From: Escherichia phage UPEC03
Length of the DNA: 64,000 bases
Reading direction: 5' to 3' (one strand)
Sequence record: MW250785
The position numbers and the translations under genes were made by a program. Positions 5,224-62,760 of this stretch are shown here, in pieces. Each line of letters opens with the position of its first letter. Positions within the stretch are counted from its first letter, which is position 1. The notes under the pieces were generated by a model that worked only from the letters and a program-made list of their open reading frames with translations, made no database searches and was not told the origin of the DNA.

Positions 5224-5756
5224 TAGTAGTTGTTAGCCCAACGACGCAGGTTTTCCGCCTGTTTCAGAGCATACAGCTTGTAGATGGTTTCCGCATCAAG
5301 TCCCAGCGCGAGGAACTTACACATGAAGAAGTGCCACTGGTCAATCAGTTCAAACAGGATTTCCAGTTTGTCTTCTTCTTTCATTTCTGCGAATACCTGG
5401 CTACGCAGTTCCTGGTGATTTGCTTTCCACGGTTTCCAGACACCGGAAGCCGCTTTTGCACCGCGTGACATACCGCCCAGAGCGGTGTAAAGTTCGCGGG
5501 TTTCGTCTGCGATTGCATCATCTTGCAGTTTCAGCCAGTCCAGGATCTCACCGCACGTTTTCAGGTTATCAGGGCGCGGAACCCATGAAAGGGTATCAGA
5601 CAGGCTTTGTTGTGCGTGGTTCTGGAGATCCAGCATTGATTGCAGAGGATCGCCGTTACGTGCCAGAACCTTTTGATATTCGGTATCAACAAATTCCAGA
5701 TCAGCAGGGTTAACCAGGTGCGCACAGCTATTAAAAACAGGAGTTTTATCAGTCAT
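5223..5756 (-). CDS. 56: dCTP pyrophosphatase (dCTPase/dUTPase), gp56-like
   Basis: CAHL..DPLQSMLDLQ..GGMSRGAKAASGVWKPWKA..LEILFELIDQWHF..KLYALKQAEN matches T4 gp56. Confidence 0.85.
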   Translation of the reverse strand: MTDKTPVFNSCAHLVNPADLEFVDTEYQKVLARNGDPLQSMLDLQNHAQQSLSDTLSWVPRPDNLKTCGEILDWLKLQDDAIADETRELYTALGGMSRGAKAASGVWKPWKANHQELRSQVFAEMKEEDKLEILFELIDQWHFFMCKFLALGLDAETIYKLYALKQAENLRRWANNY

Positions 5757-6250
5757 TTATTTGTCTCTTCATTATGAAAATTGCCGAAAATCTCTTTTGC
5801 GGCATCATTGTAAGCGGCTTGTGCTTCTTCAACAGTTGCAAAAGAACCCAAATGTTTTCGTTTGCCCTTATATTGAATACTTGCAGAAAATCGGTTTCCG
5901 CGAGGGTATACACCAATGGAACCGCTTGTGTTGTTTTTACGTTTGTTAATGTGATTTGCATTGTTTTCCGCTGTACTTGCTGGACGCAAGTTATCAGGAA
6001 AGTCACCAACATCAACGCCTTTGATATGGTCAATCATATCAGGGAGATACCCAAAACGCGAGTAAAATATAACACGATGACGCATATATTTCACACCTTT
6101 TGTTTCGATGCGGGTATATCCCTTTTTGGTTTTTGTCCCAGCTTCCATACCATTTTTAAGCCAGTAAACCTTTCCGGTATTGTAATCTATTCTAACCTTA
6201 GTCAGAAGATCCTTTATACCATCTATTTCTTTTTCGGACTTCGATCCCAT
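5753..6250 (-). CDS. HNH homing endonuclease with AP2 DNA-binding domain (paralogue A)
   Basis: HNH core RHRVIFYSRFGYLPDMIDHIKGVDVGDFPDNLR plus AP2-like SGSIGVY...YKGKRKHLGSFATVEEAQAAY; termini overlap genes 61 and 56. Confidence 0.8.
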   Translation of the reverse strand: MGSKSEKEIDGIKDLLTKVRIDYNTGKVYWLKNGMEAGTKTKKGYTRIETKGVKYMRHRVIFYSRFGYLPDMIDHIKGVDVGDFPDNLRPASTAENNANHINKRKNNTSGSIGVYPRGNRFSASIQYKGKRKHLGSFATVEEAQAAYNDAAKEIFGNFHNEETNK

Positions 6251-18793: not shown

Positions 18794-19078
18794 TTAGGCA
18801 AAAGTGCCGTTAATCAGGGATTCTACAACGCGATCCGCCGCATTGTCAAGGAATTCTTTGCTTTTGGATTCTGTGATTTTCGTACCCGCTTCGCGAGCGT
18901 CGTGAATCAATCCGGTATGTACTGCGCTTACTGCTTCGTCGATCCGTTTGTAATGCTCAAAGCGTTCAGCTTGAGGCATCGCACGGAAAATCTCTTTGAT
19001 GTTTTCCGGCACTTTACCTACCCAGGATTTGCGAACGTTGTTCAGATGCGCTACATATACGTTTTGTTCTAAATTCAT
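18794..19078 (-). CDS. hypothetical protein (occupies the position of T4 rpbA upstream of gene 45)
   Basis: Synteny only. Confidence 0.35.
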   Translation of the reverse strand: MNLEQNVYVAHLNNVRKSWVGKVPENIKEIFRAMPQAERFEHYKRIDEAVSAVHTGLIHDAREAGTKITESKSKEFLDNAADRVVESLINGTFA

Positions 19079-19099
19079 ATCTACCTCAAACTTTCAAAT

Positions 19100-19117
19100 T
19101 GGGGGCTTTCGCCCCCG
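19100..19117 (-). terminator. GC hairpin GGGGGC-TTTC-GCCCCC after gene 32
   Basis: Seen in sequence. Confidence 0.5.
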
Positions 19118-19123
19118 TAAGCA

Positions 19124-20104
19124 TTACAGATCCAGCAGTTTATCCAGGTCGTCATCACCGGAACCACCTTCCAGATCAAACGGAGGGGTATTATCATCTT
19201 CCGGTACGCTTCCGCCTACGTTCAGTTGACTTACGCCACCAGATTCTTTAGCACCTTTGGACTGGTTGCCATTATCGAAGTTTTTCAGTTCGTTGTCAAA
19301 TGAGTTCAGTTCTGAATCCAGATCCGCACCAGCGCTTGCGCCAGCACCCATTGCAGCACCACCGAATACTTTGGTGAACTTCGCGGTCAATTCCGCAGTC
19401 GGTTTGAACTGGTCTGGTGCAGTGATTGGACGCAGATCGCTCATACCTTCGAAGATTTCTTTCTGACGCGCTTCGTCTTCGATGCCTTTGATTGGGACAG
19501 GAACACCAAATTTGCTGTCGTCGTAGTTAGGCCAGTCGCCTACTTTCTTCGCGGTCAGGGTGAAGTTAGCGCCACCAAACGGACAGGTTACAGCAACACC
19601 TGGTTCATCCAGATCTGGGTTCCCCGCGATAGCCGCAGTGATTTTATCCATGATCTTTTTACCGAAGCGGAACTTAAACACCTTACCTTCGTTTTCTGGG
19701 TGCATTGGATCTTTAACCACCAGAATGTTCGCCCAGAACGATTGTTTACGTCCGATCATACCCAGTGTTTTTTCGGCTTCGCTGCCTTTCACTTTCGCTT
19801 TTTCGAACAGATCGTTTTCAGAGATATACTGACACACAGGGCAAGCATCGTAATCGCCGTGGGTAGACGGGCAGTTTTCGATGAACCACTGGTTATTCTT
19901 TTTGAATGAATGGTTGACGATACGCACGAACGCCAGTTCATCATCAGATCGGTTAGGCAGGAAGCGGATCACCGCAGAACCGTTTTTCTGTGCATCGACA
20001 CCGAGTTTCCACTCTTTTTCATCTTTCTGGAAGCCGGATGAACCTTTCAGAGCGGCGACTTGTTCTTGCAGTTTGGTTGGATCTTGACGTTTAAAGAATG
20101 ACAT
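19124..20104 (-). CDS. 32: single-stranded DNA-binding protein gp32
   Basis: EWKLGVDAQKNGSAVIRFLP...HGDYDACPVC and acidic C-terminal tail, as in T4 gp32. Confidence 0.9.
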   Translation of the reverse strand: MSFFKRQDPTKLQEQVAALKGSSGFQKDEKEWKLGVDAQKNGSAVIRFLPNRSDDELAFVRIVNHSFKKNNQWFIENCPSTHGDYDACPVCQYISENDLFEKAKVKGSEAEKTLGMIGRKQSFWANILVVKDPMHPENEGKVFKFRFGKKIMDKITAAIAGNPDLDEPGVAVTCPFGGANFTLTAKKVGDWPNYDDSKFGVPVPIKGIEDEARQKEIFEGMSDLRPITAPDQFKPTAELTAKFTKVFGGAAMGAGASAGADLDSELNSFDNELKNFDNGNQSKGAKESGGVSQLNVGGSVPEDDNTPPFDLEGGSGDDDLDKLLDL

Positions 20105-21295: not shown

Positions 21296-22231
21296 TCAAA
21301 AGTCACTTAGTTTTTCATACATACGGGTAAGTTTGCATTCCATGAAGTATTTCTCCATTTTTGCTTTGTTCCCGATTTTTGGAGCATTGTACGCTTCTTC
21401 GATTGCCGTTGCAACATCTTTCGGAATAAAATCAAAGTCGCGAAGTTCTTCGTTTTCTCTGTAGCGGATCGCCCACTCTTCGGGCATACCCACGGTCGGA
21501 TCGTCCGCTTCCAGCCAGGCTTCGAGTTCAGCAGCCCTGATTTGTGGGGCGCGTTCTCCTTCAACCTTCGTAACAATATAGTCATTTCGCATTTTAATGC
21601 AAGCGATACTATCTTTTTTATCGCCCTTGATGATCTTCATGCGCAAATCGTTACGAGGTGAACCATATTTCGGTGTAACCCATTTCTTTTGGGTTGGCGA
21701 CCACTGACGCACACCCTGATATTTTTGAAGGGCTGCAAAGTCACCATCAGCAGAAACGATCAGGACACGTTTACCTTAGGATACCGCTTTACGCGTCACC
21801 ACACCGATCACGTCATCGGCTTCTGCGAAGTCAACACGGATACCTTTGTACGGTAAATTAGCACGGATTTCATCGTATGTCGGGTGAAGGAAACCATTCA
21901 GGCGATCCCAGTCCCAATCCGATGCTTCTTGTTCCATTTTTCGTTTCTTTTTGTAGTACCAGGCTTTACTTCTGCGCCAATACTTGTTATCATCAAAGGC
22001 TAGAACAATTTCAGGGTACTCACCTTTGAATTTAACCACATTGTGACGAATGGTGTCAAGCACTATGTGACGAACAATTTGTTGGTTGATGTCATTCTGG
22101 TCTTTCGGCTTGAAGTTGTTCATCAACGTTGCTACCGAAAGGTTTGAAATATCTATACACATCACATCAACAGGATCATCGTCATTGCTCATTAAGCTGT
22201 TCAGGTTGAACATACTTGCAAATGAAGACAT
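21296..22231 (-). pseudogene. rnh: RNase H (5'-3' exonuclease, rnh) reading frame interrupted by a single in-frame TAA at 21776-21778
   Basis: ORF 21776..22276 matches T4 RNase H N-terminal half, ORF 21296..21712 the C-terminal half; both in the same frame, the 63 nt between them translate to GKRVLIVSADGDFAALQKYQGV which aligns to T4 RNase H. Confidence 0.75.
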
Positions 22232-22308
22232 TTCAATACCTCGTTGTTGTTGAATGAAACTGATTATAGTGATCACTTTTTCAAAGTCAATAGATCATTT
22301 CAAAAATC

Positions 22309-22462
22309 TGAGCGAAGCGAAGGACACGAACGTAGTGAGTGTCTATGTACTGAATGTACGTTTTAATATTTTTATATTTTATATATAGAGAAAACAGTAC
22401 ATTTCCGTATACTTTTTAACCAGTTTTAACTATCCGTTTCGCTTCGCTCACGGAAGCGCTTC
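22309..22462. repeat. 13-bp inverted repeat TGAGCGAAGCGAA (22309-22321 / 22438-22450) flanking an AT-rich 115-bp core, plus adjacent 10-bp palindrome GAAGCGCTTC
   Basis: Seen in sequence in the divergent intergenic region between rnh (-) and gene 55 (+). Confidence 0.5.
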
Positions 22463-22500
22463 GCGCTGATTTTATTAAATAATATAGATTGGAAGTAGGT

Positions 22501-22529
22501 TTGAAACACCTGATTCAATCGGCTATAAT
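22501..22529 (+). promoter_or_regulatory. sigma70-type promoter TTGAAA-17-TATAAT upstream of gene 55
   Basis: Consensus-like -35/-10 with 17-nt spacer, ~25 nt upstream of GGAG SD and ATG 22555. Confidence 0.6.
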
Positions 22530-22554
22530 GAATGTATTCAATTTGGAGAATATA

Positions 22555-24668: not shown

Positions 24669-24942
24669 CCGTTATGATGAATATTTCGGGGCGAACCCCC
24701 GATATTCTCACCTGTTGCGTATGTTGGGAATGAAACACATCATTTCCACATCCAACGAAGCAGGGGAAACCAGCGCAGTTTGTTTGACCATCATGAAGGG
24801 TGCATGGCATTCATCACGAACATGGTCAATATTCATGCTTGATACACTGGACGACGATACTCTATCATATAGTATTGATTCATCAGTTGTTCAAATGATC
24901 ACTGAATTATGTGAACGGATTTTAAATGAAACTAAAAACTAA
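24661..24942 (+). CDS. hypothetical protein
   Basis: ORF between 47 and HNH gene, overlaps both. Confidence 0.35.
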   Translation: MHSRYDEYFGANPRYSHLLRMLGMKHIISTSNEAGETSAVCLTIMKGAWHSSRTWSIFMLDTLDDDTLSYSIDSSVVQMITELCERILNETKN

Positions 24943-25456
24943 ATCACATGGAGGTGGAAACCGAACAATTGATGATGAAATTTCTTCAATAAATGAACTA
25001 CTTCCTATGTTGGATGTTGATGTTGTATTAGGAAAGATATACTGGAAAAACTCACCTCGTAAGAGCGTCCCTGCTGGAACTGAAGCAGGGAGTAAGACAA
25101 AACATGGTTACGTTGCTATCGGGTATAAAAAGACGTATTATAGACGACATCGAATAATATTTTACGTCGCTAATGGTTATCTTCCTCTCGTAGTAGATCA
25201 CAAACACGGTGTTGAATCTGGTGATGGAATAGATAACCTGCAAGACATCACGCAACAACAAAACTCCGTTAAAATGAGAATGAGTAGAAGGAATTCTTCT
25301 GGGTTTAGAGGGGTTTCCTTTCACCAAAAATCAGGAAAATGGCAATCATGTATTGTGTATAATAGAAAAACAATATATCTTGGTTTGTATGAAACACCAG
25401 AACTTGCACATAGTGCATATACAGACAAGCGAAAAGAATTATTTGGTGAAATATGA
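24926..25456 (+). CDS. HNH homing endonuclease with AP2 domain (paralogue B)
   Basis: RRHRIIFYVANGYLPLVVDHKHGVESGDGIDNLQ + AP2-like SGFRGVSF...GLYETPELAHSAY; inserted between genes 47 and 46 with ATGA overlap to 46. Confidence 0.8.
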   Translation: MKLKTKSHGGGNRTIDDEISSINELLPMLDVDVVLGKIYWKNSPRKSVPAGTEAGSKTKHGYVAIGYKKTYYRRHRIIFYVANGYLPLVVDHKHGVESGDGIDNLQDITQQQNSVKMRMSRRNSSGFRGVSFHQKSGKWQSCIVYNRKTIYLGLYETPELAHSAYTDKRKELFGEI

Positions 25457-40531: not shown

Positions 40532-40608
40532 GGCCCTTTAGCTTAATTGGTTAGAGCGGGTGACTCATAATCGCGCGGTTGCTGGTTCGAATCCAGCAGG
40601 GGCCACCA
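40532..40608 (+). tRNA. tRNA with CAU anticodon (Met, or Ile if lysidine-modified), encoded CCA
   Basis: Acceptor GGCCCTT/AGGGGCC, T-arm GCTGG-TTCGAAT-CCAGC, anticodon loop CTCATAA; hand-folded. Confidence 0.75.
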
Positions 40609-40613
40609 AATAC

Positions 40614-40689
40614 GCAGGTGTAGTTCAATTGGTAGAATATCTGGTTTCCATCCAGATTGTTGAGGGTTCGAGTCCCTTCACCTGCTCCA
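40614..40689 (+). tRNA. tRNA-Gly (UCC), encoded CCA
   Basis: Acceptor GCAGGTG/CACCTGC, anticodon arm TCTGG-TTTCCAT-CCAGA, T-loop TTCGAGT; hand-folded. Confidence 0.8.
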
Positions 40690-43991: not shown

Positions 43992-44568
43992 CGGGATCGC
44001 CGTAAAATGGCAGTCGGGGTTGCCGTTCTTTTTGTCTAAACACAACATGCCGACCGATATCGCGCTGGATATGGTTACGGATGAAAAGTTCCGCGATATG
44101 ACCGAAATCTTCGGGTGTGATCACCAACTGGCGAAAATTCTCATGGAAGAATACAACAACAGTTCGTTTATTCGCTATCTAAGCGCGTATGACGATGCGT
44201 TAATTGTTATCAACCGTCTGAAAGCCAAATATGATTTTGTGGCTGTCACGGCGCTGGGAACCACTCCTACGGCAAGCCTTAACCGTATTGCAAACCTGAA
44301 CACGCTGTTCCCTTCTGCATTCAAAGAGGTTTGTGTTGTCGGTCACGGCGAAACGAAAGTACATCGTTACCTGGAAGCCAAAGCAAAATATGGCGATCGT
44401 TTAGTATGTTTCATTGATGACCTTGCAGTAAACTTGAATGAGTGTCATAACGTCATCAGTCAGTTGCCGTTATTCCATATGTTGCGTGGCGAACGTAGTG
44501 AACCGAGTGTACCTCATACTAAAGTGAATAACTGGCATGAAATTGAAAAAGCAATTGAGAACTCTTGA
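43963..44568 (+). CDS. HAD-superfamily hydrolase (possible deoxynucleotide 5'-monophosphatase)
   Basis: Motif I LTDIDGI, C-terminal FIDD. Confidence 0.45.
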   Translation: MKPVILTDIDGIAVKWQSGLPFFLSKHNMPTDIALDMVTDEKFRDMTEIFGCDHQLAKILMEEYNNSSFIRYLSAYDDALIVINRLKAKYDFVAVTALGTTPTASLNRIANLNTLFPSAFKEVCVVGHGETKVHRYLEAKAKYGDRLVCFIDDLAVNLNECHNVISQLPLFHMLRGERSEPSVPHTKVNNWHEIEKAIENS

Positions 44569-45088
44569 TGAAGAAACGCAAGGTATAGAAAACCTACTAC
44601 AATGTATTCGAGTAGAACCAGAAACCGGAAAATGTTTCTGGTTGGAAAAGAGAAGTAATAAAATTCCTGCTGGAAGTGAAGCAGGTTCTTTTCATAAATC
44701 AAGTGGATATACGCGAATAAAATTCGAAAATGCGATGTACATCCGGTCACGGGTGATATTTTATTACGTTAATGGTTATCTTCCAGTGATGGTTGACCAT
44801 GTTCACGGTGTTGAATGCGGTGATATGATTTCTAATCTAAGGGAGTCCAATCAGGTAACAAATCAACAAAACCGCACACGGAATAAAAATAATACCGTTG
44901 GGTTTAAGGGCGTGTCATTCAACAAGAAATCGCAAAAATATAGCGCCAAAATCACTTTACATGGAGTGACTAAGTGGTTAGGATTTTATGATTCTGCCGA
45001 GGAAGCAAGTGAAGCATATAAGGCCAAAGCACTCGTTTCCTTTACACATAATGAAAGGTACTTAAATGATCTTACAGATTCTAAATGA
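44537..45088 (+). CDS. HNH homing endonuclease with AP2 domain (paralogue C)
   Basis: RSRVIFYYVNGYLPVMVDHVHGVECGDMISNLR + AP2-like VGFKGVSF...GFYDSAEEASEAY; overlaps both flanking genes. Confidence 0.8.
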   Translation: MKLKKQLRTLDEETQGIENLLQCIRVEPETGKCFWLEKRSNKIPAGSEAGSFHKSSGYTRIKFENAMYIRSRVIFYYVNGYLPVMVDHVHGVECGDMISNLRESNQVTNQQNRTRNKNNTVGFKGVSFNKKSQKYSAKITLHGVTKWLGFYDSAEEASEAYKAKALVSFTHNERYLNDLTDSK

Positions 45089-62170: not shown

Positions 62171-62250
62171 GGTATGTTCCTTTTCAGTTTCGTTTCGGTA
62201 AAGCTAATGTATCACTATCCTGGTCAGTATGCAATGTTTAATTTTGCAAA
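62171..62250 (-). promoter_or_regulatory. cassette copy: -35 TTGCAT, 17-nt spacer, -10 TACATT, leader ...CCGAAACGAAACTGAAAAGGAAC
   Basis: Read on minus strand. Confidence 0.45.
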
Positions 62251-62760
62251 TTTACCAAAATGTTTTATCGCTTCCCGATCGTATGCTTTTGCAGCCTCGT
62301 ATTCGTCACGATAGGAACCGATATGTTTAACCTTGCCGTCAATCTTTATCTGTGCAATGTAACGTATTCCAGTAGGTTGATCACGTACACATACACCCTT
62401 GAATCGACTGGTTGCTACTCTTCGTTTAGTCCGGTTCTGACAGTTTCGGGATTGATCCGCTTCACGCAAGTTATCAATCCCGTCGCCAGCCTCAACACCA
62501 TTTTTATGATCAATCACATCAGGCAGTTTTCCGGTTGCAACGTAGTAGATGATTCGATGACGTAGATATCCTTTGCTTTTGAAATAAACGCGGGTATATC
62601 CTCCTTTAATCTTCGAACCTACTTCCTTTCCGATCAAGTCAGAACGTTTGTGTGACGTTCGTATAATTGTCCCCGTTTGTATATCAACAGAAACAGTTTT
62701 AAGGAATTCGTCAATTCCTTTCTGTTCTTCTTCGATTGTTCTTAGTCCGTTGTGTGACAT
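62224..62760 (-). CDS. HNH homing endonuclease with AP2 domain (paralogue D)
   Basis: RHRIIYYVATGKLPDVIDHKNGVEAGDGIDNLR + AP2-like SRFKGVCV...HIGSYRDEYEAAKAY; overlaps 3' end of C5-MTase gene. Confidence 0.8.
   Translation of the reverse strand: MSHNGLRTIEEEQKGIDEFLKTVSVDIQTGTIIRTSHKRSDLIGKEVGSKIKGGYTRVYFKSKGYLRHRIIYYVATGKLPDVIDHKNGVEAGDGIDNLREADQSRNCQNRTKRRVATSRFKGVCVRDQPTGIRYIAQIKIDGKVKHIGSYRDEYEAAKAYDREAIKHFGKFAKLNIAY

Follow-up and report, generated by a model that had tools for sequence, protein, structure and literature searches.

The rnh gene of Escherichia phage UPEC03 (MW250785, a Pseudotevenvirus of 178,307 bp) does not contain an uninterrupted reading frame, the sole break being a TAA at codon 152. 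We attribute this stop to a genuine and recent loss-of-function mutation, GAA to TAA, with a probability of about 0.85. The window denotes here the whole stretch of 64,000 nucleotides that was analysed, and all coordinates refer to it. Judged from its sequence, the rnh locus is a family member by descent and a pseudogene as it stands. The lesion is an ordinary isolate-specific knockout; it is neither a case of recoding, nor a new system, nor a conserved trait. The features concerned are the following.

21296..22231, minus strand: rnh, T4-type RNase H / 5'-3' flap endonuclease (identified by tblastn, PDB and Pfam comparisons), a pseudogene through one nonsense codon.
21776..21778, minus strand: premature ochre codon TAA at rnh codon 152, corresponding to T4 Glu145 in a gap-free central block of the alignment.
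21778: causal substitution, A on the plus strand against C in all relatives, that is, G to T on the coding strand.
21779..22231, minus strand: N-terminal product of 151 aa (QUL76980.1, "hypothetical protein"), which keeps only the equivalents of T4 D19, D71 and D132.
21299..21775, minus strand: untranslated remainder, codons 153-311, with D162, D164, D204, D207 and the RNaseH_C domain.

The complete gene would comprise 311 sense codons followed by its natural TGA at 21298-21296. In the list of open reading frames it appears as two minus-strand entries, 21776..22276 (166 aa) and 21296..21712 (138 aa), which lie in one frame. The initial annotation had joined the two on the ground that together they align with T4 RNase H over its whole length, and this was confirmed with the structure-derived sequence: phmmer aligned residues 14-311 of the repaired protein with residues 6-305 of PDB 1tfr chain A at E = 1.3e-68. 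The 63 nt separating the two frames had been described as free of stops, which is correct; they encode 21 residues, GKRVLIVSADGDFAALQKYQG, and not 22 as had been given, the 22nd letter, V, being the GTG start of the downstream frame. The start proposed for the upstream frame, 22276, did not hold and is a spurious GTG. ATG 22231, which has GAGG 8 nt upstream, is preferred because it is this codon that matches the 311-aa annotation of the gene in every relative. A tblastn search of the window with the RNase H protein of Enterobacter phage EC-F1 gave a match over residues 1-311 whose only mismatch was the stop at 152, and the repaired protein is identical to that of EC-F1. Both domains expected of the enzyme were recovered in the repaired / EC-F1 protein above their cut-offs, 5_3_exonuc_N (PF02739) at 43.9 bits and RNaseH_C (PF09293) at 100.5 bits.

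The likeness to T4 extends to the active site and the gene neighbourhood. T4 RNase H (PDB 1tfr and 2ihn), of the FEN-1 / 5'-3' exonuclease family, is homologous to UPEC03 rnh over the full length and has the same domain pair. Its seven metal-binding aspartates in the active site, D19, D71, D132, D155, D157, D197 and D200, are all Asp in the frame of the window as well, where the counterparts are, in order, D27, the D of AFDD, D139, D162, D164, D204 and D207. The positions of five of them relative to the stop are as follows.

D139, upstream of the stop: equivalent of T4 D132 in the 1tfr alignment.
21746-21748 and 21740-21742, minus strand, downstream of the stop: D162 and D164, equivalents of T4 D155 and D157.
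21620-21622 and 21611-21613, minus strand, downstream of the stop: D204 and D207, equivalents of T4 D197 and D200.

The gene order is also that of T4, with dsbA, gene 33, gene 59 and gene 32 downstream of rnh and gene 55 divergent upstream. Unlike in T4, the UPEC03 frame is cut at codon 152, and the single-chain enzyme cannot be made.

On the minus strand the stop lies in the context AAA GCG GTA TCC TAA GGT AAA CGT GTC CTG ATC GTT TCT GCT GAT GGT GAC. That this TAA is the only break, at a position where T4 has Glu, was already seen in the initial annotation, and its suggestion of an ancestral GAA was borne out by the relatives. The region is 99.1-99.8% identical (over 1.2 kb) to about 37 Pseudotevenvirus genomes, whose hosts belong to Enterobacter, Cronobacter, Citrobacter and Klebsiella; the closest is EC-F1, at 99.7% over 24 kb. 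Codon 152 is GAA in EC-W1, leN, GAP161 and others, and in the three named the surrounding sequence is the same as in UPEC03. In EC-F1 (URP86074.1), GAP161 (AFC22156.1) and leN (AOG16456.1) the protein is the same as that of UPEC03 except at codon 152, which is GAA against TAA in UPEC03. The comparison with orthologues proposed in the initial annotation found the gene intact, with a sense codon at 152, in 17/17 sequences inspected (nine from GenBank, eight from IMG/VR). Close relatives have GAA (Glu) at this codon and more distant ones CAA (Gln) or AAA (Lys). The residue is not conserved, and each of its three natural states is one substitution away from TAA.

Database searches gave the same picture of a private allele. 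In an 81-nt stretch spanning the stop, 0/43 close GenBank phage records, among which the UPEC03 record itself does not figure, match the window, and an exact 41-nt search for the TAA allele in viral, genome and metagenome contig collections returned no match. A relaxed search with an N pattern retrieved two IMG/VR contigs matching the flanks, both with GAA. The intact 311-aa protein is encoded on 93 contigs and the 151-aa fragment on one, that of UPEC03. We also projected seven relatives onto positions 11200-32400 of the window (21.2 kb): the sole base that differs from all seven is 21778. Between the window and EC-F1 there are 65 differing positions in this interval, and those other than 21778 are polymorphisms that circulate among the relatives, which form a mosaic, recombining population.

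Some labels in the databases superficially resemble the UPEC03 situation. Relatives in which rnh seemed to be split, annotated as a "ribonuclease" next to a "hypothetical protein", were rejected as parallels; the second label belongs to a short frame called on the other strand, between rnh and its upstream neighbour, and rnh itself runs uninterrupted over 936 nt. A 54-aa "ribonuclease" of Klebsiella phage CPRSB (UQJ95751.1) falls into the 90%-identity cluster of rnh and may mean that another genome has been deposited with rnh in fragments. A 60-aa partial copy in the same cluster, on a 273-bp contig assigned to Streptococcus pyogenes, seems to be a contaminant.

Larger differences from EC-F1 were seen elsewhere in the window. 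Four paralogous HNH-type homing-endonuclease genes with about 40% mutual identity are present at 5756-6235 (minus), 24926-25453 (plus), 44537-45088 (plus) and 62227-62760 (minus). EC-F1 lacks the first of these at the corresponding site and has the copy of about 44.5 kb at another position. Most indels between the window and EC-F1 are explained by such mobile endonucleases, present at a site in one genome and absent from it in the other. On the minus strand at 18797-20104, gp32 and RpbA show 14 and 6 amino-acid differences from EC-F1, respectively, the flanking proteins being 100% identical; since no difference is private to the window, this stretch corresponds to a recombination patch common to other relatives.

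A single-base difference that is unique among all relatives, in a gene intact in every other genome inspected, is also what a sequencing or assembly error would produce, the phage truly having GAA and the deposited T being a consensus artefact. The quality of the record makes this unlikely. Of the 108 EC-F1 genes compared with the window by tblastn, 103 were full-length and gap-free, including one HNH gene after re-checking, three fell into a divergent mobile-endonuclease patch, in which the position of a homing-endonuclease gene is not the same, and two lay off the window ends. Among the 105 genes so compared none besides rnh has a frameshift or a stop; frameshifts are absent altogether, which argues against a noisy assembly. 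Nor does the assembly appear error-prone in its substitutions, because no second private base was found in 21 kb. The TAA at 21778-21776 lies outside any homopolymer or repeat. UPEC03 was sequenced on a MiSeq (2x151) with 149,362 paired-end reads, which were Q30-trimmed and assembled with SPAdes (PMC8928767). From these published figures we compute a coverage of about 126-253x.

A further assembly carries the same base. In the Logan assembly of SRR16019039, contig 41 (38,166 bp) agrees with the window at 100% identity along the 3,625 bp retrieved, TAA included, and has exactly the 151-aa fragment and, after it, the 138-aa frame. From this identity, SRR16019039 is most likely the UPEC03 read set, so that the GenBank and Logan assemblies probably share one set of reads, and a stock of mixed alleles would be compatible with both. 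Two assemblers, SPAdes and that of the Logan pipeline, thus both give TAA. Of the explanations first offered for the stop, sequencing error is therefore disfavoured by the reproduction of the private allele in the Logan assembly of a clean genome, and a genuine ochre mutation is the best supported by the private allele, the independent assembly and the high-coverage Illumina data.

Readthrough of the stop, the third explanation offered, would leave the gene functional; termination could be leaky, or the host or a part of the phage genome beyond the window could supply an ochre suppressor tRNA. Residue 152 is Glu, Gln or Lys in relatives, and classical ochre suppressors insert Gln, Lys or Tyr, so a suppressor-inserted residue would probably be tolerated; a host ochre suppressor would probably restore a working RNase H. 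About 114 kb of the UPEC03 genome, moreover, lies outside the window. On the other side, the stop is conserved in no relative, which excludes a programmed signal, and its flanks are the same as in relatives having a sense codon, which speaks against the evolution of a dedicated readthrough signal; no recoding signal was found at the site in these sequence comparisons. TAA followed by G, the arrangement seen here, is the genuine terminator in 3/27 neighbouring genes. The UUA-anticodon suppressor tRNA that the initial annotation had proposed to look for was not found by ARAGORN in the 64-kb window or in the complete EC-F1 genome, used as a proxy. The tRNAs of the window are the following pair.

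40532..40689, plus strand: tRNA-Met(CAU) and tRNA-Gly(UCC), the only tRNAs of the window, neither of which reads UAA.

The complete EC-F1 genome has tRNA-Met(CAU) and tRNA-Gly(UCC) and no others. Ochre suppressors are rare in natural E. coli isolates, and basal readthrough of UAA is very low. We consider readthrough highly improbable as the explanation of the allele.

Read as a genuine mutation, the stop almost certainly makes the allele null and the truncated protein inactive, because the 151-aa product would be without the equivalents of T4 D155, D157, D197 and D200 and without the C-terminal half. In T4 RNase H, replacement of D19, D71, D132 or D155 by Asn abolishes nuclease activity, the second metal is held by D157 and D200, and the C-terminal domain binds gp32 (PMC3012046). 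The fragment scores 26 bits against 5_3_exonuc_N in Pfam, under the cut-off of 34.3 bits. Within codons 153-311 there are a 138-aa frame from GTG 21712 and a 114-aa GenBank frame, QUL76978.1; MW250785 labels the two halves of rnh, QUL76980.1 and QUL76978.1, as separate hypothetical proteins. We considered whether the downstream frame could supply the second piece of a two-piece enzyme by reinitiation, and rejected this. GTG 21712, the first start in frame beyond the stop, is downstream of the D162 and D164 codons, neither fragment has these essential aspartates, and two fragments arising from such a restart could therefore not form a complete active site. A Shine-Dalgarno sequence at proper spacing was likewise not found for a restart at GTG 21712.

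The loss of rnh by ochre mutation would then have proceeded as follows. One G-to-T transversion in the lineage of the sequenced UPEC03 stock would have changed codon 152 from Glu to ochre, and translation would end after 151 residues. The resulting fragment would lack four of the seven active-site carboxylates, the helix-3-turn-helix (H3TH) duplex-binding region and the gp32-contacting C-terminal domain, and essentially no RNase H / flap endonuclease would be provided by UPEC03. Removal of the Okazaki primers would fall to the host, whose DNA polymerase I has a 5' nuclease, and plaques would still form. UPEC03 came from sewage in Kampala, with an E. coli isolate of avian origin as host, and was plaque-purified three times or more (PMC8928767, PMC7737885); it forms clear plaques, and working stocks were of 1e8 PFU/ml (PMC7737885). 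Repeated single-plaque bottlenecks during purification, through which even a mildly deleterious change can spread, most likely fixed the mutation, which would place its fixation probably in the laboratory and not in sewage.

The tolerance of such a loss has a precedent in T4, whose rnh-minus phage is viable, the 5'-3' exonuclease of E. coli Pol I substituting for the missing enzyme (PMC3012046, citing Hobbs and Nossal 1996). Like UPEC03, the T4 null mutants grow despite the loss of RNase H, and the viability that Pol I affords them would explain how plaques can be obtained from the UPEC03 stock. Compensation by host Pol I in UPEC03 is proposed by this analogy. The dispensability of rnh is known from T4, and its extension to a Pseudotevenvirus would follow on the same analogy. 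The T4 null mutants were engineered, whereas the UPEC03 allele is a spontaneous ochre mutation in a newly isolated Pseudotevenvirus.

Instead of having been fixed by bottlenecks, the knockout could have been adaptive, the loss of RNase H having been selected on the wild avian-pathogenic host, for example as an escape from a defence that senses or depends on flap endonuclease. Escape from defence through the knockout of non-essential phage genes is a known pattern. In the 21-kb region about 4.3% of the possible single-base coding substitutions create a stop (9% for G-to-T and C-to-A changes), and the sole private substitution there is a nonsense mutation. Under drift alone, a nonsense change as the only private variant is somewhat unexpected, which may point to selection. 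This is a single event, however, with p of about 0.04 at best. Against selection also stands the intact rnh of all other sequenced relatives, including isolates from many different hosts, and in T4 losing rnh carries a cost and brings no benefit. We give an adaptive knockout very little credence. It also seems quite unlikely that either of two host-dependent situations applies, namely a knockout selected on the wild APEC host through a defence linked to flap endonuclease, or a host ochre suppressor that makes the allele conditionally functional. If selection or a host suppressor were at work, UPEC03 would be a natural rnh-conditional T4-like phage.

The region between rnh and gene 55 (22232-22554) shows several further sequence elements. 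Two divergent near-consensus sigma-70-like promoters were noted there, one on the minus strand at 22290-22263 and one on the plus strand at 22501-22529; the first faces rnh.

22263..22290, minus strand: sigma-70-type promoter-like site upstream of rnh, TTGACT and TATAAT separated by 16 nt (11/12 positions, a consensus match only).

A perfect 13-nt inverted repeat, TGAGCGAAGCGAA at 22309-22321 with its complement at 22438-22450, flanks an AT-rich imperfect palindrome at 22353-22403, and the Logan contig of SRR16019039 ends within this palindrome, at 22400. A repeated regulatory cassette upstream of rnh was considered and rejected; no second copy of the motif was found in the window, where it is single-copy.

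In summary, a recent ochre mutation is the best explanation for the interrupted rnh of UPEC03, and the stop has no bearing on recoding or suppressor biology. The two hypothetical halves in MW250785 merit one annotation, as an rnh pseudogene. UPEC03 is a candidate therapeutic phage, and the null allele probably cuts its burst size and ties its growth to host DNA polymerase I, a point of caution for users of the stock. The allele would also be an unplanned experiment of nature, indicating that a Pseudotevenvirus, like T4, can form plaques without rnh.
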